Virus record (IMG/VR): IMGVR_UViG_2737471860_000005
DNA length: 10,662 bases
Strand: one strand, 5' to 3'
Source of the DNA: a virus
Taxonomy: Duplodnaviria; Heunggongvirae; Uroviricota; Caudoviricetes
Shown: piece after piece, positions 2,548 to 10,662 of the stretch
How positions within the stretch are numbered: the first letter of the stretch is position 1
Layout of the letters: every line of letters begins with the position of its first letter
Translations under genes and position numbers: made by a program
Notes under the pieces: generated by a model
Database searches by the model: none
What the model was told of the DNA's origin: nothing
What the model saw: the letters and a program-made list of their open reading frames with translations, nothing else

Positions 2548-4980
2548 TTACAGCATATGTTCAGTACGAGCGATGATATCGTCCTGAGCGTCTGGAGAGA
2601 GCGCGGTGAAGAAGGCGGAATAACCCGCGACACGCACTACCAGATCGCGGTACTGATCCGGATGTTTTTTCGCCTCCAGCAGCGTTTCGCGGGAAACGAT
2701 GTTGTACTGAATATGCCAGCCTTTATGCACCTCGAAGAAGGTGCGCAGCAGGATCATCAGCTTCTGCTTGTCAGATTCGTTCTCCAGCGTTGCCGGATTC
2801 AGTTTCTGGTTGAGCAACACGCCGCCGAGAATCGCTGCCGTAGGCAGTTTACCCACCGAGCCAATGACCGCAGTAGGGCCGAGATGGTCAGTACCAGAGG
2901 CCGGACTAGCGCCTTCTGCCAGCGGGGTGTGGGCTTTACGCCCGTCCGGCGTTGCCATAGTTTGCGCGCCAAACGGTACGTTAGCGGAGATAGATGACGT
3001 ACCCGCGTAATAGTTGCCGCCAACCGGACCACGACCGTAGCGCGGATTATGGTACTGTTTCAGTTCGTCGATATAGGTCTGATAAGCGCGAGCCAGCAGC
3101 GTATCGACAGTATCATCGTCGTTGCCGTACTTCGGCGCACCGTTAATCAGCCGCTGACGCAGTTGCTCATGAGTCAGGCCATCGAAGTCATCCGCCAGTG
3201 CGGCAGCCAGCTGTTGCTGACCAATCGCGCCCTGTTCAAATACCAGTTTCTTCACTGCCGCCAGGCTGTTGCCGAGGTTGGCAATGCCAACCTGCAGGCC
3301 AGAAACCCAGTCATATTTCGCGCCGCCTTGCTTGATACTTTTCGCTCGCTCAATACAGTCATCCACCAGCGCCGAGCAGAGAATATCGTGCACGTTCTCT
3401 TCCAGCATGGTGTCGACGACATATTCGATTTCGATTGATTTACGCGTGTAATAACGGATTTGCGTATCCCACGCGTCCATTACTTCATCGAAATTGTTAA
3501 AGTTGCCTGCCGACAACGCTTTTTCTTGTGGCAGGAACACTTTGCCGCTGGTGGCATCACGCCCGCCTTCCAGCGCCGCCAGCATCACGCGGGCGAAGTT
3601 GATAAAGCTCATGCCGGTACAGCGATAGCCCCATTTGCCACCGACGGCGGTTTCGATACAACCAATCGCTGCGTAGTCGTAAGCGTCCTGCGGTTCAATA
3701 CCGAGTTTAATAAATTCCGGGATCACGATTTCGTCGTTGTTGAACGCCGGCATCCCGAAGCCGCAACGGATCACCTGTACGCAGGCGTCGAGGAAATCAT
3801 TACTCATTCCTGCATGGTAACGCACGCTGAGGTTAGGCTGAGTGGAACGCAGGCGACCGCAGGATTCGAGGATCGCGTAAGAGAGGGGATTCACTGCATC
3901 CATTGGTTGACCATCAACCAGATTTTGTCCGCCAATGGTAACGTTCTGATACAGCGGACTTCCCGCAGAGGCTTTTGAGTGTGAGCCGGAGCGGATCTTG
4001 TTCACTTCCAGCAGTTTCAGCCAGCAGCTATGTAGCATCTCGATGGCGTGTTCGCGATCCAGCGTCTGGTTGAGTTCAACGTCGCGGCGATAGTACGGGT
4101 AGAGATACTGGTCCATACGACCAAACGATACCGAGTGACCGTTAGATTCGATCTGCAAAATCAATTGGATGAAGTAACACAGTTGCAGCGCCTGCCAGAA
4201 AGTCTGCGGCGGCTGGTGGGCGATAAGATCGCAGTTTTCTGCCATCGTCAGCAGTTCATCGCGACGGCTTTCGCGAGTTTCGGTAGCAGCCATTTCACGC
4301 GCCAGGGCAGCGAAACGTTCAATGTGTTCACTGACTGCCACCAGCACGATATCAATCGCTTTCAGGAATTGTTCGCCATGTAAATCTTCCAGCACCGTCA
4401 GATTGATGCGCGAGCGACGTTCCGCTACTTTCTCACGCAGACCATCAAGACCTTTTTCCAGCAGCAGCGGGAAATTCACCGCCAGGTGCGCATCGCCGGA
4501 GGTCATATTGCCTTCCGCTTTAATGATTCCGGTCGCCAGCAGACCTTTTTGCTCATCGGTAAACATGCCGTAGCAGCGATCCTGTACGGTCTGACCGCGC
4601 CACCACGGGCACACTTCATGCAGAACGCGTTTGTTCTCTTCGCTCACCGCAAAGCCAGCACCGGGACGATCTGCCAGATCATCAATCTCTTTTTCGATCC
4701 ACGAGACAGTATATTCCGGGAAGATCGGCGCGGCGCGAACTTCGCTTGCCTGGTTGCCAATGATCAACTCATCGTGTTTGATCCAGATGGTGCGATTCGC
4801 CAGGTGATGCGCCAGTGCCAGCGCGCGACGTACCGGGATCGGCTTATCGAGATGTTGTTGATACATCTCGGTATAGTGCTGCGCGCGCTCGGTACAGACT
4901 GGCGGTTTCACAATATGCACCAGCGCATTTTTGTGCGCTTTAATGCGGTCGCTGAGCGTGTCCAGTTTCAGTGTGGTCAT
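2548..4980 (-). CDS. ybiW: Glycyl-radical enzyme of the pyruvate formate-lyase family (YbiW/PflF)
   Basis: 810-aa ORF with a C-terminal glycyl-radical signature (VVRVAGYSAFF) about 30 residues from the end; the size and motif fit PFL-family glycyl-radical enzymes. Its ATG (4978-4980) sits 6 nt after the ybiY stop with GAGGA inside the end of ybiY, suggesting translational coupling. Confidence 0.88.
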   Translation of the reverse strand: MTTLKLDTLSDRIKAHKNALVHIVKPPVCTERAQHYTEMYQQHLDKPIPVRRALALAHHLANRTIWIKHDELIIGNQASEVRAAPIFPEYTVSWIEKEIDDLADRPGAGFAVSEENKRVLHEVCPWWRGQTVQDRCYGMFTDEQKGLLATGIIKAEGNMTSGDAHLAVNFPLLLEKGLDGLREKVAERRSRINLTVLEDLHGEQFLKAIDIVLVAVSEHIERFAALAREMAATETRESRRDELLTMAENCDLIAHQPPQTFWQALQLCYFIQLILQIESNGHSVSFGRMDQYLYPYYRRDVELNQTLDREHAIEMLHSCWLKLLEVNKIRSGSHSKASAGSPLYQNVTIGGQNLVDGQPMDAVNPLSYAILESCGRLRSTQPNLSVRYHAGMSNDFLDACVQVIRCGFGMPAFNNDEIVIPEFIKLGIEPQDAYDYAAIGCIETAVGGKWGYRCTGMSFINFARVMLAALEGGRDATSGKVFLPQEKALSAGNFNNFDEVMDAWDTQIRYYTRKSIEIEYVVDTMLEENVHDILCSALVDDCIERAKSIKQGGAKYDWVSGLQVGIANLGNSLAAVKKLVFEQGAIGQQQLAAALADDFDGLTHEQLRQRLINGAPKYGNDDDTVDTLLARAYQTYIDELKQYHNPRYGRGPVGGNYYAGTSSISANVPFGAQTMATPDGRKAHTPLAEGASPASGTDHLGPTAVIGSVGKLPTAAILGGVLLNQKLNPATLENESDKQKLMILLRTFFEVHKGWHIQYNIVSRETLLEAKKHPDQYRDLVVRVAGYSAFFTALSPDAQDDIIARTEHML

Positions 4981-4985
4981 GGTTG

Positions 4986-5340
4986 TTATCCTCGTAAGGT
5001 CGCGGTTAACCCTTTCTGGCAGGCATACTGCTGGGCAAAGTCGAGCAGTTCTGGCGCATCAAGCGGTTTTTCCGGGGCGTCATAGGGCAGATTAAGTAAG
5101 TGATATTTGTTGATGCCCAGCGTGTGGTAGGGCAGAAAATGAATTTCGCCAACGTGCAGCTCGTCGGCGGCAAAATCGGTAATGGCTTTTACAGAGGTTT
5201 CGTCGGCATTAAAGCCCTGAATCAGCGGCACGCGGATAATGATTTTTTTGCCCGCTGCGGCGAGTTTTTTCAGGTTATCCAGCACCCTGGCGGCGTTACC
5301 GTCGGTCCACTGTTTAAACGGCGCGTCGGCAACGTGTTTT
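4986..5340 (-). pseudogene. ybiY: 3' fragment of the glycyl-radical-enzyme activating enzyme gene ybiY (pflE), truncated by prophage insertion
   Basis: The reading frame ending at stop 4986-4988 (...[28 protein letters not shown]...) runs upstream without an ATG to about 5340, where composition switches abruptly to AT-rich phage-end sequence and a stop appears at 5349-5351. The N-terminal part, which should carry the radical-SAM CxxxCxxC motif, is absent from this window. The activase identity rests on gene order next to ybiW and on memory. Confidence 0.75.
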
Positions 5341-5359
5341 AAATATGACTAGGTAATTT

Positions 5360-5491
5360 ATTCAAGATAACCGGGAAAAGATTAAAAAAGACGGGATTTG
5401 ATGGGATTCAATAAGTTAGGTACTGAACGCATTCAAGATAAAACGTACCGAAAACGCTCAACGCCTCGGGAACGATAAAACATTCAAGATA
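5360..5491 (+). repeat. attL transposase-binding-site repeats (L1-L3-like)
   Basis: Three direct copies of the 10-bp core ATTCAAGATA at 5360-5369, 5431-5440 and 5482-5491. The middle copy continues AAAACGTACCGAAAAC, resembling the MuA end-binding consensus that ends in CGAAAA. Confidence 0.6.
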
Positions 5492-5542
5492 GGCGCGCCG
5501 TGTATTTTAAGCCTTTTAAGACATTTCAAAAACATCAGTATG

Positions 5543-5610
5543 GCCTTTAAAAAAGAATTTTAAAGGCACCATGAAGGCAGGTCAATGAAGTTAACCTGCC
5601 TTCGTTTTTA
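5543..5610. terminator. Tandem hairpins at the 3' end of the repressor gene; intrinsic-terminator-like on the plus strand
   Basis: Hairpin A: 10-bp inverted repeat GCCTTTAAAA/TTTTAAAGGC (5543-5552 and 5558-5567), 5-nt loop. Hairpin B: 9-bp stem GAAGGCAGG/CCTGCCTTC (5573-5581 and 5595-5603), 13-nt loop that contains the c stop codon, followed on the plus strand by GTTTTTA (5604-5610). Confidence 0.4.
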
Positions 5611-6106
5611 CACTCTCTGAGAGAATACTAGCTTCAATCTCCGCCAAAATCTCTCTGACTTGCTCGTCGGGCATATCGACCAGCATCAACGCAGCTAGGC
5701 GTTTACGGCCCTCCAGTTGCAGCAATTCTTGATTTTCCTTATCTAACAAGCGTAGCACGGTCTCAACACCTTTCCTTGCGAGCATGTTGGTTAGGGCCTC
5801 TCGTTCCTCATTGGTAAGAAACGAGAGCATTTCAATTAGCTGATCGCCTTGGCTTAAATTACTTTGTAATTCTTGTGTTTTTGGTGAATTTCCGTTACCT
5901 GTTTTTAACCATTCAAGACTAACGCCTTCACTTTCTGCAATGCGTACCAATATGCTTTCACGAGGCTCTGGTGTGTTTCCCTTTTTAAAATAGCTTTGTA
6001 ACGTGTTGATATTTATTCCCCAAGCTCTGGCGGCAGCACTTCTTGATGGATATCGCCTAATAAGATAGGCCATGCGCTCTACGATAGGTTCTTTTGCCTG
6101 CTCCAT
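5591..6106 (-). CDS. c: Prophage repressor (Mu c-like C-terminal region, HTH N-terminal domain)
   Basis: 171-aa ORF transcribed divergently from ner, with GGAGG 7 nt upstream of the ATG. The N-terminal region looks like a helix-turn-helix (SRSAAARAWGININTLQSY). The C-terminal segment LAALMLVDMPDEQVREILAEIE resembles the Mu repressor C-terminal region as I recall it. Position and orientation match Mu c. Confidence 0.7.
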   Translation of the reverse strand: MEQAKEPIVERMAYLIRRYPSRSAAARAWGININTLQSYFKKGNTPEPRESILVRIAESEGVSLEWLKTGNGNSPKTQELQSNLSQGDQLIEMLSFLTNEEREALTNMLARKGVETVLRLLDKENQELLQLEGRKRLAALMLVDMPDEQVREILAEIEASILSESVKTKAG

Positions 6107-6297
6107 AAAAGTACCTCCAGGTATTTTTCTGCTTAAAGGTTCTTTTCTATCTATCTAATTGAATAGAAATGAAATCTTAAAAAACCAATAAAAATACAAA
6201 AAATACCTTGAATAGGTACTTTTTGTGATCTACGATTTTATTCACTCGGATATCCGCGCGAATATCCGAGCGGGTAATTTTGTAGGGTAAAGGAAAG
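6107..6297. promoter_or_regulatory. Divergent early control region (Pc/Pe promoters and operators; possible enhancer)
   Basis: 191-bp AT-rich intergenic region between divergent c and ner. It contains two copies of TTGAATAG (6159-6166 and 6208-6215), the partial palindrome AAAATACC-N7-GGTACTTTT (6200-6224), A-tracts, and a possible rightward promoter TTGAAT (6208-6213), 17-bp spacer, TACGAT (6231-6236). It lies about 770-960 bp from the left end, comparable to the Mu operator/enhancer position. Confidence 0.5.
6245..6270. promoter_or_regulatory. Palindromic operator-like site upstream of ner
   Basis: CTCGGATAT-CCGCGCGA-ATATCCGAG: 9-bp perfect inverted arms. The left arm contains the self-complementary 10-mer CGGATATCCG (6247-6256), and the half-site ATATCCG recurs 12 bp later (6262-6268). 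It sits 28-52 bp upstream of the ner ATG, just downstream of the putative early promoter -10. Confidence 0.45.
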
Positions 6298-6549
6298 ATG
6301 AGACAAAGAGAAGATAGTGGCCGCGATTGGCCTTCGCTGATGATTCAGCAGGCACTCAAAGATAATGGGTGGTCTTCCTTTCGGGAGCTTTCACTCCATG
6401 CAGGTTATGCTCAGGATTCACTGAAAGCGGTAGTTCGTACACCAAACAAAAAATACGAACGCGTTATTTCTGACGCTATAGGTGTCCCGCCAGAAGTCAT
6501 CTGGCCCAGCCGATACCGTAATGATGGAATAATCAGGAAGGCGTCGTGA
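6298..6549 (+). CDS. ner: Ner-like DNA-binding early regulator
   Basis: 83-aa ORF with AAGGAAAG upstream. It contains RDW near the N-terminus and PEVIWPSRY near the C-terminus, both matching phage Mu Ner and the Ner/Nlp family as I recall them. It is the first gene of the rightward early operon. Confidence 0.8.
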   Translation: MRQREDSGRDWPSLMIQQALKDNGWSSFRELSLHAGYAQDSLKAVVRTPNKKYERVISDAIGVPPEVIWPSRYRNDGIIRKAS

Positions 6550-6550
6550 T

Positions 6551-8647
6551 ATGCAGTCGTACGTTACCGTAAATGACCTGCTCGGTGTTCCTGGAATGCC
6601 AGCCACAGCAAAAGGCATCCGACAGGCGTTACAGCGTTTTTCTCGTGGTCTTGGTGACATGAGCCGCCGTAGGGAAGGCTCAAAAGCCATTGAGTACCAC
6701 ATTGATTGCCTACCGGAAATAACACAAAAGGCACTACGTGAACGTTATGTGGAACAACTAGTAGCTACGGAGAACAACGTTTCTGAAGTAAAAGCTGTTA
6801 CTAGGAAGACACGTAATCCCGATGCTGTTCAGGCGATCGAAGCATATCGCGGTTCTCCGCAACTGATGGAAGAACGCCTGAATGCACTTACCGAAAACCA
6901 GCGTCGGGTATCTGAAGCAAGGGCAGCGCTGGTGGTGGAAGTGCTGAAGCTGGAAAGCGCCGGTAACATCGGGCGACTGAAAGCCATTAACTTTCTTGTT
7001 GAAAAGGCTCGTAAAGACGAGCTGCCAGAGCGACTGCAACAGGCCGCGATTAACGCCAATGCAAAACGTGGCGCTAATCGCACTATCAGCCGTGATCCGC
7101 TTTACCAGTGGGTACTGAAATACAACCAGTCGCGGAATGCCGCAGAACGACTGCTGTTACTGGCACCAGGTAAACGTGACGAAATAAAACCGGAAGAAAT
7201 TAGCTGGCTACCTGAATTTCTGGCGCAGTATCGCCAGGTGAACGGCAGACCTATGTCTGAAGCCTACGAGGATTTTGTCGCGGAATGGCAGCGTCGCCAT
7301 GCAGACGAACCGTACATGCTGGAGGTGATGCCCTCTTACGATGTGGTTCGTTATGCCATGAAGAAATTGCCGGAAGTGGTGAAACAAAAAGGACGCGTTA
7401 CCGGCAGTGAATACCGTCAGCTTGAAGGATTCACCCGTCGCAACTGGACCGCTATGCCGGTGAATTATGTCTGGATTGGTGACGGTCACGGTATGAAGCT
7501 GAAATGTGCGCATCCGATCCACGGGCGTCCATTCTCACCAGAAGTCACGTTTGTGATCGATGGTGGAACACGGTTTGTTGTTGGCTGGAGTCTTGACCTT
7601 GCCGAGAACGTGTTCGCCGTTGCCGGTGCAATACAGCACGGCATTCGTAACCACGGAAAACCGTTCCTGTATTACTCGGATAACGGTTCCGGTGAAACGG
7701 CAGATATGCTGGATAAAGAGATTGTCGGGATTCTGCCCCGTCTGGGCATTAACCACCCCACCGGTATTGCGGGAAATCCACAGGGACGCGGCATTATTGA
7801 ACGCCTGAACCGGACGCTGCCGATGCGTATAGCCAGGAAGTATCGCACCTATTTTGGCAAGGGTGCTGACCGGGAATCATTGCGTGTGCTCAATCGCGAT
7901 CTGCGTTCAGCATTTAATGCCCTGCAACAGGACAAACCGCTGAATGCTCGCCAGAAATCTGCAATGCGTGAGCTGCCATCATGGACAGAACTTATCGAGG
8001 CTATTCGTGAAGGTGTGGAATGGTACAACAACCGCCCACATTCTGAGCTGCCGATGAAACCTGACGGACGGCATTACAGCCCGGCAGAATTCAGAAAAAA
8101 ACGCCTGGCAGAAGAAGACACCGAAATTGAGTGGCTGAGTGATCTTGAGCTGCGCGACATGTTCCGCCCGATGGTGGAACGGCCTGTAAGACGGTGCGAA
8201 ATTCAGTGGCTGAACAATATTTACTACGCGCCGGAATTGCGTGACGAACACGGCCGCAAAGTTCTTATCAGTTATGACATTCATGACGCAGAGCGAATTA
8301 CGGTACGCCGTAAAGACGGCAGCTTTATTTGTGAGGCGATATGGAACGGCAATAAACGCGCAGCCTTTCCTGTCACGGCTGAATATCACAAACAACAGCA
8401 GCGTATTAAAGGAATGCGCAAACGTGCTGAGGAAAAAATTCGTGATGCTGAAGATGAAGGTATCCAGATTCTGGAACACAAACAGTCTGAACCATGTCTG
8501 GATAATGTTTATCGCCCGGTTGGTAATACGGTAACCGTCCAGCAACAGGATTATGAAGAGGATTACGACGAAGATTATAAACGCGATTTCTGGCTGGGTT
8601 TGCAGAAACTTGCAGCCATACAGGAACAGGATGATCCGCTGGCCTGA
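6551..8647 (+). CDS. A: Mu A-like DDE transposase
   Basis: 698-aa ORF starting 1 nt after the ner stop (TGAtATG). The N-terminal motif GSKAIEYHIDCLP resembles the MuA/Mu-repressor winged-helix motif (GVKGGKAIEY). Candidate catalytic residues are D311 (WIGDGH), D377 (YYSDNGS) and E417 (IIERLNRTL), followed by WYNNRPHSEL, typical of a retroviral-integrase-type core. Confidence 0.88.
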   Translation: MQSYVTVNDLLGVPGMPATAKGIRQALQRFSRGLGDMSRRREGSKAIEYHIDCLPEITQKALRERYVEQLVATENNVSEVKAVTRKTRNPDAVQAIEAYRGSPQLMEERLNALTENQRRVSEARAALVVEVLKLESAGNIGRLKAINFLVEKARKDELPERLQQAAINANAKRGANRTISRDPLYQWVLKYNQSRNAAERLLLLAPGKRDEIKPEEISWLPEFLAQYRQVNGRPMSEAYEDFVAEWQRRHADEPYMLEVMPSYDVVRYAMKKLPEVVKQKGRVTGSEYRQLEGFTRRNWTAMPVNYVWIGDGHGMKLKCAHPIHGRPFSPEVTFVIDGGTRFVVGWSLDLAENVFAVAGAIQHGIRNHGKPFLYYSDNGSGETADMLDKEIVGILPRLGINHPTGIAGNPQGRGIIERLNRTLPMRIARKYRTYFGKGADRESLRVLNRDLRSAFNALQQDKPLNARQKSAMRELPSWTELIEAIREGVEWYNNRPHSELPMKPDGRHYSPAEFRKKRLAEEDTEIEWLSDLELRDMFRPMVERPVRRCEIQWLNNIYYAPELRDEHGRKVLISYDIHDAERITVRRKDGSFICEAIWNGNKRAAFPVTAEYHKQQQRIKGMRKRAEEKIRDAEDEGIQILEHKQSEPCLDNVYRPVGNTVTVQQQDYEEDYDEDYKRDFWLGLQKLAAIQEQDDPLA

Positions 8648-8655
8648 ATAAAAAA

Positions 8656-8677
8656 ACAGTCCGCGGAAACGGACTGT
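8656..8677 (+). other. Stem-loop in the A-B intergenic region
   Basis: 8-bp perfect inverted repeat ACAGTCCG/CGGACTGT with a 6-nt loop, 9 nt after the A stop and 44 nt before the B ATG. It has no U-tract, so it is not a classical terminator; it could be an RNA stability or processing element or a partial attenuator. Confidence 0.35.
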
Positions 8678-8720
8678 TAAACAAAGGAAACAAAGCTGAT
8701 TTGAATAAACGGAGAATAAT

Positions 8721-9650
8721 ATGACCGATATTAATGATGTTTTCAATACGATTAGCTCACTGATTACTGACAGCGTAAAAACTCAGAGCGTTATTGCTAA
8801 AGAGGCAGGCGTGTCAGAGGCCACACTCTCGGAACTCCGCAAAGGTCGTTACAAAGGCGATACCGAAGGGATGCATGACAAATTACTGATGTGGTATCAG
8901 GCCTGGCAGAAAAGCCAGGAATTACCAGGCGCACCGCAACTTGTGGAAACACAAACCCTGCGTGATTTGCGTGAACTGTTCCAGACGGTGCGTGTTATGG
9001 GGTGTATCAGCGTTCTGGTTGGTGTGCCGGGGGTAGGAAAAACCGTTGCAGCCCGTGAATACAGTAATCGGGTATCTAATACCTGGATGGTGACCCTTTC
9101 CCCTGCACACTCAACGGTGACTGAATGTCTGCTGGAACTGGCAGACGCGCTGGGAATTGATAATCCGCAAAGGAATAAAGGTGCACTGACCCGTGCCATT
9201 CGCAAAAAACTGAATGGTACACGCGGTCTGGTTATTGTGGATGAAGCTGACCACCTGAGCATTGACGGGCTGGAACAATTACGTGCCATTCAGGATGCCA
9301 CCGGAGTCGGGATGGTATTGATTGGTAACCCCAGCCAGTTAGCCAAAGCCACACATCGGGGAACGGATGACCTTGCACGTTTGTTCAGTCGTTTCGCCAT
9401 GACAAAGCAACTACGTAAAGCCAAAAAGGCTGACGTGGTGGCAATTGCAAAAGCCTGGGGCATTGAGGGCGAAGATGAATTATCACTCATGCAGAGTATC
9501 GCGGAAAAACCAGGTGCATTACGTGTATTAACTCATACGTTGAATCAGGCGTGGCTGGCAGCCAGCGGGAAAGGCGTTCCTCTGTCCAAAGACTACATTA
9601 AAGCGGCTTTTAAAGAGGTTTACAGCAACCCGAAATTACTGAACTGGTAA
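8721..9650 (+). CDS. B: Mu B-like AAA+ ATPase (target DNA activator)
   Basis: 309-aa ORF with Walker A GVPGVGKT (residues 101-108) and Walker B LVIVDEAD (about 170-177), plus an N-terminal HTH-like segment (SVIAKEAGVSEATLSELRKG). It lies immediately downstream of the transposase, as in Mu. Confidence 0.85.
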   Translation: MTDINDVFNTISSLITDSVKTQSVIAKEAGVSEATLSELRKGRYKGDTEGMHDKLLMWYQAWQKSQELPGAPQLVETQTLRDLRELFQTVRVMGCISVLVGVPGVGKTVAAREYSNRVSNTWMVTLSPAHSTVTECLLELADALGIDNPQRNKGALTRAIRKKLNGTRGLVIVDEADHLSIDGLEQLRAIQDATGVGMVLIGNPSQLAKATHRGTDDLARLFSRFAMTKQLRKAKKADVVAIAKAWGIEGEDELSLMQSIAEKPGALRVLTHTLNQAWLAASGKGVPLSKDYIKAAFKEVYSNPKLLNW

Positions 9651-9661
9651 TAGGGTGATAA

Positions 9662-9892
9662 ATGATGATGTCACGAAATATAAAAATGGCAACGGATGCG
9701 CAGCACTGGTTACAGGCGCGCGGAAGTCACGTAAATGAATCATATATCGGCGTGGCACGCCCGATTCTTGAAATCACTTATCCACCTGTTGAACTGGTAA
9801 AAAACGCGGTCAGGATTATGGAGCATAAATCAGGTATTGCCCGTTCTGTATGGACGACACGTCTTAATGGTTGCCAGATTATCTGGAGATAA
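9662..9892 (+). CDS. Small early protein of unknown function (occupies the Mu kil position)
   Basis: 76-aa ORF beginning 12 nt after the B stop. Three consecutive ATGs (9662, 9665, 9668) follow GGGTGA, so the true start is probably 9665 or 9668. No motif recognised; assignment is by synteny only. Confidence 0.5.
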
Positions 9893-9894
9893 CG

Positions 9895-10125
9895 ATGTGT
9901 ATTAAAGCTGAAAAATATATTGAATGGGTTAAACACTGTCAGCACCACAGAGTACCGTTGACGACATATAAATGCCCTGGATGTGGTGAACAGATTATGA
10001 CGCAATGCTCACCAGAAAAGGAAATTCGGGATTCTCTGACATGTTGTCCTTGGTGTAGTGCAGTTTTCTTTAAACAGGTACAAGGTGCGAAGGTAAAAGC
10101 CAGCGTAGTTATTCAGAATCAATAA
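9895..10125 (+). CDS. Small zinc-ribbon protein (CxxC...CxxC) of unknown function
   Basis: The ORF track gives a TTG-forced start at 9871, but ATG 9895-9897 has GGAG 6 nt upstream, overlapping the previous stop. The 76-aa product carries CPGC (residues 26-29) and CCPWC (49-53) plus further Cys/His residues (HCQHH), a typical small zinc-ribbon arrangement. Confidence 0.55.
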   Translation: MCIKAEKYIEWVKHCQHHRVPLTTYKCPGCGEQIMTQCSPEKEIRDSLTCCPWCSAVFFKQVQGAKVKASVVIQNQ

Positions 10126-10136
10126 GGAGAAGCAAA

Positions 10137-10400
10137 ATGGCAAAAGTAATTATTGAAATTAAAAATACAGTATCTGGAATTAAAGGACGGAATTTGTGCA
10201 CCAGCATTGCGGTGGACGGTAGTGCGGAACTGGACGGTGATGAGGGTACACTCGCTGGCATGGTGGCGTTACTGGTGCTTAATAAAAGCCAGAAAATAAT
10301 TAATGAGTCAGCTCATGAAGCTATTGAGATTTTGAAAAACGATGGTGTCATCACCGGTGGCCGTGTCACTGAAATGGCTGTTGAAAAAACATGCCACTGA
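10137..10400 (+). CDS. Hypothetical small early protein
   Basis: 87-aa ORF with a strong AGGAG 7 nt upstream of the ATG, starting 11 nt after the previous stop; same strand and tight packing with its neighbours. No motif recognised. Confidence 0.5.
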   Translation: MAKVIIEIKNTVSGIKGRNLCTSIAVDGSAELDGDEGTLAGMVALLVLNKSQKIINESAHEAIEILKNDGVITGGRVTEMAVEKTCH

Positions 10401-10414
10401 AAGGAACGCTGACA

Positions 10415-10657
10415 ATGAACGTCAAAATCCGAAATGAAATTCAGGCATTAATCCGAATTCAGGAACGCAATAACAACGGTGGTGAATTACGCGAGTTTAT
10501 TTGTGCGCGTGAAGTTGATGGTTATGGTGAAAAAACTTACCTGATAGCTTTTGACCATTACAGCATCTGTGCGCGTTATTGCGGTGAAAGCATTTCCAGC
10601 GCCATTGCGTTTGGCGGTGCGTTCAACGTGGATTTATGGGAATACGGGCTTTGTTGA
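10415..10657 (+). CDS. Hypothetical small early protein
   Basis: The ORF reaches stop 10655-10657. I prefer the start at ATG 10415 (AGGA 9 nt upstream, product MNVKIRNEIQ..., 80 aa). The track's alternative, ATG 10391, overlaps the previous gene by 10 bp and lacks a clear ribosome-binding site. Contains several Cys residues; no motif recognised. Confidence 0.45.
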   Translation: MNVKIRNEIQALIRIQERNNNGGELREFICAREVDGYGEKTYLIAFDHYSICARYCGESISSAIAFGGAFNVDLWEYGLC

Positions 10658-10662
10658 ATAAA

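Follow-up and report, generated by a model that had tools for sequence, protein, structure and literature searches.

An orthologue of phage Mu gp6 with a predicted Cys4 zinc-ribbon fold in the early operon of a mosaic Mu-like prophage

Prophage and Operon Context

The window (the whole stretch of DNA analysed, 10,662 nucleotides of IMG/VR record IMGVR_UViG_2737471860_000005) comprises E. coli chromosome in its left half and the left end of a Mu-like transposable prophage in its right half. Host genes in the left half encode a Cof-type HAD hydrolase (1587–2402), a PFL-like glycyl-radical enzyme (2548–4980), and a glycyl-radical-enzyme activating protein (ybiY/pflE-like; 4986–5345, – strand), the last of which is interrupted by the left end of the prophage at ~5335. 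Only the C-terminal ~112 residues of the activating protein remain (profile positions 182–293 of 293), with the frame breaking at the prophage end. Roughly 5,000 E. coli genomes match the stretch 5300–10662 over its initial ~40 bases, at ≥99%.

The prophage encodes a repressor (c; 5591–6106, – strand) and, upstream of kil, an early operon on the + strand (6298–9650) that contains ner (6298–6549; Pfam HTH_35), the transposase gene A (6551–8647; Mu-transpos_C and HTH_Tnp_Mu_1), and the gene for the B ATPase (8721–9650; Phage-MuB_C and AAA_22). These are followed by kil (9662–9892, + strand), the 76-aa product of which matches PHROG 2743 “Kil protein” (E = 1e-41) and has 92% amino acid identity to Mu Kil; by the gp6 gene that is our subject; by a gp7 orthologue of unknown function (10137–10400, + strand; 87 aa; PHROG 10252; 97.7% amino acid identity to Mu gp7); and by a gp8 homologue (10391–10657) of 88 aa, compared with 139 aa in Mu.

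DNA homology to Mu is confined to 9660–10646 (94.3% identity over 987 bp; Mu 4307–5293). This stretch runs from 2 nt upstream of the kil start codon to a point within the gp8 homologue, and across it the gene order kil-gp6-gp7-gp8 is collinear with that of Mu. Outside it, B has 44% amino acid identity to Mu B, and A matches Mu A only locally (29%) and is 41–43% identical to Citrobacter-type Mu-like transposases. By these comparisons the prophage (5591–10646) is a mosaic with junctions at ~9660 and ~10646, in which gp6 sits with a c-ner-A-B module other than that of Mu.

Start Codon and Translation Signals

The gp6 coding sequence (9895–10125, + strand, stop codon included) starts with ATG and encodes a product of 76 aa, MCIKAEKYIEWVKHCQHHRVPLTTYKCPGCGEQIMTQCSPEKEIRDSLTCCPWCSAVFFKQVQGAKVKASVVIQNQ. 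The kil stop codon TAA (9890–9892) and the gp6 ATG (9895–9897) are separated by 2 nt, and a Shine-Dalgarno sequence, GGAGA (9885–9889, + strand), occupies the last two sense codons of kil, with the ATG 5 nt downstream. Phage Mu likewise has a 2-nt gap between kil and gp6, with an identical ATG in the Mu annotation, and this spacing, together with a Shine-Dalgarno sequence inside kil, is common to Mu, D108, and SfMu. A preliminary description of the locus had the gp6 start overlapping the stop of the preceding gene; given the 2-nt gap, it is only the Shine-Dalgarno sequence that overlaps the end of kil. An alternative TTG start at 9871 (84 aa) was rejected, because the ATG at 9895 has a Shine-Dalgarno sequence and agrees with the Mu, D108, and SfMu annotations.

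Based on synteny with Mu, gp6 would be transcribed within a long early transcript (ner-A-B-kil-gp6-gp7-gp8), so that the early-operon placement given in the preliminary description holds. No promoter- or terminator-like sites were found on the + strand from 8600 to 10662, which fits gp6 as a gene within a long operon. Translation would proceed from the Shine-Dalgarno sequence of gp6 itself; because this lies within the last kil codons, re-initiation coupled to kil is plausible, and the translational coupling to kil that had also been suggested is possible on the same grounds.

Orthology With Phage Mu gp6

The window protein is equal in length to Mu gp6 (NP_050610; Mup06; “gp6; previously called E5”; hypothetical protein; Mu 4542–4772) and 94.7% identical to it, the two differing by four amino acid changes (C17H, G19R, K63Q, and A71V). 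Identity is 90.8% to D108 gene 6 and 75% to SfMu ORF6, the latter described as of “unknown function” (PMC4406740). The protein has a full-length match to PHROG 3786 (E = 3.5e-39; residues 1–76 against profile positions 10–86 of 86), and PF26833 (Phage_Mu_gp6) is a precomputed match on every homologue at 68–93% identity, although the Pfam copy searched with the window protein was one without the PF26833 model. The likeness to Mu gp6 extends to the neighbouring genes (kil upstream, gp7 and gp8 downstream), the start codon context, and an arginine at position 45. Taken with the collinear gene order, these comparisons make it almost certain that the ORF is the orthologue of Mu gp6.

The gp6 family is thus already catalogued, as PHROG 3786 and PF26833, without an assigned function, and the window copy is an allele of a catalogued hypothetical Mu gene, a correct but ordinary finding that on its own adds little. 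Mu is the model transposable phage, and most genes of its semi-essential early (SEE) region, gp6 included, are without known function. What is gained here is a structural assignment for gp6, the Cys4 ligand set, the exclusion of an HCQHH stretch from that set, and a family-wide signature.

Selection and Family Size

Values of dN/dS (Nei-Gojobori) among the window allele, Mu gp6, and five E. coli prophage alleles range from 0.09 to 0.37, and the window and Mu genes are separated by 11 synonymous and five non-synonymous differences. When 1.84 billion cluster representatives were searched exhaustively with a profile, 193 relatives were retrieved at E ≤ 1e-3, mostly of 70–100 aa. These data indicate that gp6 is a genuine gene under purifying selection.

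Annotation of the gp6 ORF is missing from 28 of the 39 matching RefSeq E. coli records, a systematic gap. The frame is open in the four unannotated records with a full-gene match that were examined (L033, L034, L035, and L038); in E. coli W (L033, 601–831), gp6 is identical to Mu gp6, yet unannotated. Some copies are altered: L040 has an N-terminal frameshift, and ligand cysteines are changed in L038 (C54Y) and in the P0005 cluster (C30Y). The missing annotations and the altered copies could be taken to mean that the ORF is a chance or decaying frame rather than a functional gene, a reading that we regard as extremely unlikely. Against it stand the low dN/dS values, the retention of a conserved motif pattern with compensatory cysteine shifts across the 193 diverse cluster representatives (see below), a confident structure model, and the intact frame in the unannotated records examined. 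Chance or decay is effectively refuted by the conservation data, which favor a functional gene.

Cysteine Conservation and Predicted Fold

The preliminary description noted CPGC and CCPWC motifs about 20 residues apart, and both are confirmed in the ORF: CPGC at residues 27–30 (9973–9984, + strand) and CCPWC at residues 50–54 (10042–10056, + strand), with 20 residues separating C30 and C51. Conservation was counted in an alignment of 134 small gp6-family members (133 at some positions). Four cysteines are close to invariant (C27 in 124/134, C30 in 132/134, C51 in 133/134, and C54 in 134/134), so that the family does not show the lack of cysteine conservation that would have spoken against a metal site. 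The prolines of both motifs are also retained (P28 in 131/134 and P52 in 126/134), giving a pattern of two CPxC knuckles, the second formed by C51 and C54.

Where a ligand has been lost, a cysteine usually appears beside it. All ten members without C27 carry C29 instead (an xPCC variant), compared with 10 of the 124 members that have C27 (Fisher p = 5e-10), and the sole member without C51 carries C50. Overall, a compensating neighbouring cysteine is present in 11 of 13 members missing a ligand, and four cysteines are kept in 132/134. Because lost ligands are compensated in this way, there is strong comparative support for a Cys4 metal site. The first cysteine of CCPWC is a non-conserved extra residue (C50 is Cys in only 15/134 members), as are C2, C15, and C38.

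An HCQHH stretch (residues 14–18; 9934–9948, + strand) had also been proposed to form part of the metal site. This is not borne out: in most members H14 is replaced by R, H17 by A, and H18 by N, close relatives have RVQNN or HCQCH, and position 15 is Cys in 10/133 members. Since H14, C15, H17, and H18 vary across the family, we place HCQHH outside any conserved site; it lies within a helix and is not predicted to bind metal.

The AlphaFold2 model, built from a 109-sequence alignment, has a mean pLDDT of 92.6 and a pTM of 0.79. It comprises a helix (residues 3–17) and five strands (residues 22–26, 33–37, 44–50, 57–63, and 66–71). The predicted N-terminal helix (9901–9945, + strand) has two conserved positions, Y8 (kept in 108/133 members) and residue 11, which is aromatic (W, Y, or F) in 118/133; further conserved positions of the family are G19, Y or F at 25, T36, and K60 (116/134). 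The protein would therefore fold as an N-terminal α-helix packed on a β-sheet of two hairpins, each tipped by a CPxC knuckle: C27 and C30 in the turn between strands 22–26 and 33–37, and C51 and C54 in the turn between strands 44–50 and 57–63.

A single small zinc-ribbon or treble-clef fold had been envisaged for this protein. Because each CPxC motif occupies a β-hairpin turn in the model, the zinc ribbon is preferred, in agreement with the cysteine conservation; the treble clef was rejected, since it would require the second ligand pair to come from the N-terminus of an α-helix, whereas in the model the turn that holds C51 and C54 is flanked by strands, with no helix after it. On the combined evidence of alignment and model, gp6 is very probably a Cys4 zinc ribbon, in which C27, C30, C51, and C54 would most probably form one tetrahedral site that holds structural Zn2+.

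The Conserved Loop and the W45R and G42K Changes

The loop between the two hairpins and the start of the third strand (residues 39–47; 10009–10035, + strand) carry the family motif P-P-x-G-E-x-W-D-S/T, which in the window protein reads SPEKEIRDS. Position 45 is the most conserved non-ligand residue of the family, being aromatic in 123/134 members (W in 98, Y in 18, and F in 7) and arginine in only three; it is followed by D46 (119/134) and by S or T at position 47 (127/134). Arginine at position 45 (codon CGG, 10027–10029) is found only in the lineage of Mu and the window, tryptophan being present in SfMu, in D108, which is otherwise 92% identical, and in the rest, and the common G42 is replaced by lysine (10018–10020) in both the window and Mu. 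G19R is a departure specific to the window. Of the family signature, the window protein accordingly has Y8, W11, T36, P40, E43, D46, S47, and K60, with G19, G42, and W45 replaced. The W45R and G42K changes could signify an altered or weakened gp6 function in the Mu lineage, and they may reflect either re-targeting or relaxed constraint.

Distribution and Dispensability

A set of 5,426 complete E. coli genomes yielded 92 with kil and 38 with gp6; in 54 of the 92, kil occurs without gp6. In two of the loci without gp6 (L030 and L031, 2731–2764) the slot after kil is empty, with a gp7-like gene directly next and gp8 missing as well, and in a third (L032, 2739–2951) it is occupied by an unrelated, cysteine-free ORF of 70 aa. 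In Mu-like prophages of E. coli, the position just after kil behaves as a variable slot, holding gp6, nothing, or an unrelated ORF.

According to the preliminary description, absence or frameshifting of the ORF in closely related prophages without consequence would count against the proposed zinc-binding protein. In part this is seen, the gene being absent, replaced, or decayed in many related prophages; such loss speaks for dispensability and is not evidence against the zinc ribbon. From this distribution, gp6 is in good likelihood a dispensable, exchangeable accessory gene, consistent with the location of Mu gp6 in the SEE region (PMC4553209).

Beyond close relatives of Mu, gp6 homologues of ~30% identity occur in Citrobacter and E. 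coli prophages that retain the order c-ner-A-B-(Kil-like PHROG 2041 gene)-gp6, and in another Mu-like lineage gp6 lies farther downstream, adjoining gemA and mor. Relatives were also found in Serratia and Pseudomonas siphophages and in an 87-kb phage-like contig. A scan of IMG/VR viral contigs, using a subset alignment of the gp6 family as the query, identified relatives in 16 viral loci; the MuA and MuB HMMs matched in 0/16, and one locus encodes a tyrosine integrase. Because relatives occur without MuA and MuB, gp6 is not tied to transposition, and these genomic settings indicate a family that is horizontally mobile. Dispensability, exchangeability, and independence from transposition are the main biological points to emerge for gp6.

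Two further settings are chromosomal. In L012 and L013 (6001–6234), a gp6 relative lies in a non-phage chromosomal island, with neighbours that include umuD/umuC-like genes and genes for an HNH_2 nuclease, a NUDIX hydrolase, a cpYpsA-like protein, and a large NERD/helicase protein; this looks like a mobile-element or defence-island region. In L044 (6001–6225), a weak family member (P0170; relative P0137) is encoded in a bacterial chromosome, not a phage. Its neighbours are a ZrgA-like gene, a DUF3299 gene, and an ABC transporter, an arrangement suggestive of zinc uptake. The first CxxC knuckle is missing from this copy, which reads YPAIG there and could be a domesticated or convergent relative.

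Searches for Characterised Relatives

No characterised homologue of gp6 was found by sequence or by fold, nor was a functional study found in the literature. Pfam (in the copy without PF26833) returned generic zinc-finger matches only, all sub-threshold, the best being DUF7459 (E = 2.8e-4, below the cut-off). Neither PDB search was productive: the sequence profile had no match below E = 0.2, and Foldseek, run with the gp6 model, had no significant one. Only uncharacterised phage relatives were found in BFVD, and the PADLOC-DB defence models gave no match for the window protein at E ≤ 0.1. NCBIfam yielded sub-threshold matches to FmdB and ECs_2282; the FmdB-family zinc ribbon (TIGR02605) scored 17.1 bits (E = 0.0042), short of the 31.3-bit cut-off, and was rejected. 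One source names a 68%-identical homologue as an Elf1 transcription elongation factor, and neither the Elf1 profile nor its fold was matched. The PDB and BFVD searches brought up generic zinc ribbons or uncharacterised relatives only; comparable generic Cys4 ribbons of solved structure are the LysW amino-group carrier protein, the sarcosine oxidase delta subunit, MasE, ZitP, and RBR IBR domains.

A comparison with TraR and DksA had been suggested in the preliminary description. The C4 zinc finger of DksA/TraR resembles gp6 in having four cysteines in two CxxC pairs ~20 residues apart; the comparison gave no sign of kinship, there being no Pfam match at E ≤ 1 and a β-rich AlphaFold2 fold with no coiled coil.

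Small Cys4 zinc proteins of phages are also represented by Com of Mu and by Ogr/Delta of P2/P4. Kinship with these was rejected, with no Pfam match to Com or Ogr/Delta at E ≤ 1 and a non-significant Ogr/Delta match in BFVD (E = 1.3). Com is encoded by Mu itself, and differs from gp6 in genomic position and expression class: gp6 belongs to the early SEE region, whereas Com belongs to the late mom operon.

Proposed Function

Judging from its sequence, gp6 lacks a catalytic motif and is too small for an enzyme. The overall best explanation, to which we give slightly more credence than doubt, is that the window ORF is a Mu gp6 orthologue that forms a Cys4 ribbon and serves as an early accessory factor binding a host protein. 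The zinc-stabilised module would attach to a host factor early in lytic growth, and its role would be an accessory one in host takeover or counter-defence, not a part in transposition. Contact would probably be made through the conserved P-P-x-G-E-x-W-D-S/T loop, located at the far end of the sheet from the zinc site. Taken by itself, the step of binding a host protein is a tentative proposal that we hold with somewhat more reserve than conviction.

Nucleic acids are frequent ligands of zinc ribbons, and gp6 might instead be a nucleic-acid-binding zinc-ribbon regulator of phage or host transcription or translation, comparable to Com of Mu or Ogr of P2. In favor of this, the pI of the window protein is a basic 8.7, K60 is among the conserved positions noted above, and there are weak resemblances to regulators: the sub-threshold match to TIGR02605, a match to PHROG 1076 “FmdB-like transcriptional regulator” (E = 0.0044), and, in some gp6 relatives, a weak match to Zn_ribbon_TFIIB. 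However, the FmdB- and TFIIB-type matches fall far below curated cut-offs and cover generic CxxC knuckles only, and Com and Ogr/Delta are unmatched, as described above. Across the family, pI ranges from 4.7 to 9.3 (10th to 90th percentile; median 7.6), with many members acidic, and outside the ligands conservation falls on aromatic, acidic, or hydroxyl residues (W-D-S/T) rather than on basic ones. Because so wide a range of pI means that basic character is not conserved, binding of protein rather than of nucleic acid is favored, and we consider a nucleic-acid-binding regulator rather improbable.

The position of gp6 invites the alternative that it is a functional partner of Kil (a modulator, antidote, or co-factor), with stoichiometry set by gene coupling. 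In the window as in Mu, D108, and SfMu, the gp6 ATG lies 2 nt past the kil stop and its Shine-Dalgarno sequence lies inside kil. The ~30%-identical gp6 genes of Citrobacter and E. coli prophages follow a 96-aa PHROG 2041 gene, and the window Kil also weakly matches PHROG 2041 (E = 0.0054). Such a partnership is weakened because kil and gp6 occur independently: 54 of the 92 kil-bearing E. coli genomes lack gp6, with the slot empty or filled by an unrelated ORF; gp6 relatives are present in phages without a Kil-like neighbour; and gp6 takes a different position in the early region of another Mu-like phage. A dedicated Kil partner is on this evidence improbable, and the binding of a host protein remains the preferred account of gp6.

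To our knowledge, the arm and cim functions of the SEE region have not all been assigned to ORFs, and gp6 could be the ORF behind a classical Mu early-region function. More specifically, it might be an accessory of transpositional replication, perhaps the ORF behind arm or cim. The gp6 family is frequent in the early operons of several transposable-phage lineages, near A and B, and the SEE region is reported to hold the arm and cim functions (PMC4553209; PMC10052514). Against this, gp6 is absent from many Mu-like prophages whose A, B, and kil genes are close relatives, and the classical map positions are not linked to the gp6 ORF in the sources consulted. Because contexts without a Mu transposase exist, namely the phages and islands described above in which gp6 relatives occur without MuA and MuB, a dedicated transposition accessory is weakened, and it seems to us quite doubtful.

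A bolder form of the host-protein proposal is that the gp6 family comprises widespread zinc-ribbon proteins that inhibit a host factor (e.g., a defence or DNA-repair protein), encoded in a hypervariable accessory slot after kil in Mu-like phages and traded among unrelated phages and islands. This is conceivable, though we place it on the unlikely side. If it is true, W45R and G42K in the Mu lineage would reflect re-targeting in an arms race.

The gp6 domain also occurs at the C-terminus of longer proteins (P0084, P0094, P0147 [KPP23 ORF054-like], P0031, P0032, and P0034). These fusions were set aside as a clue to gp6 function, being too sparse; the N-terminal parts are without a Pfam match except for one, a dATP/dGTP pyrophosphohydrolase domain (PF04447).
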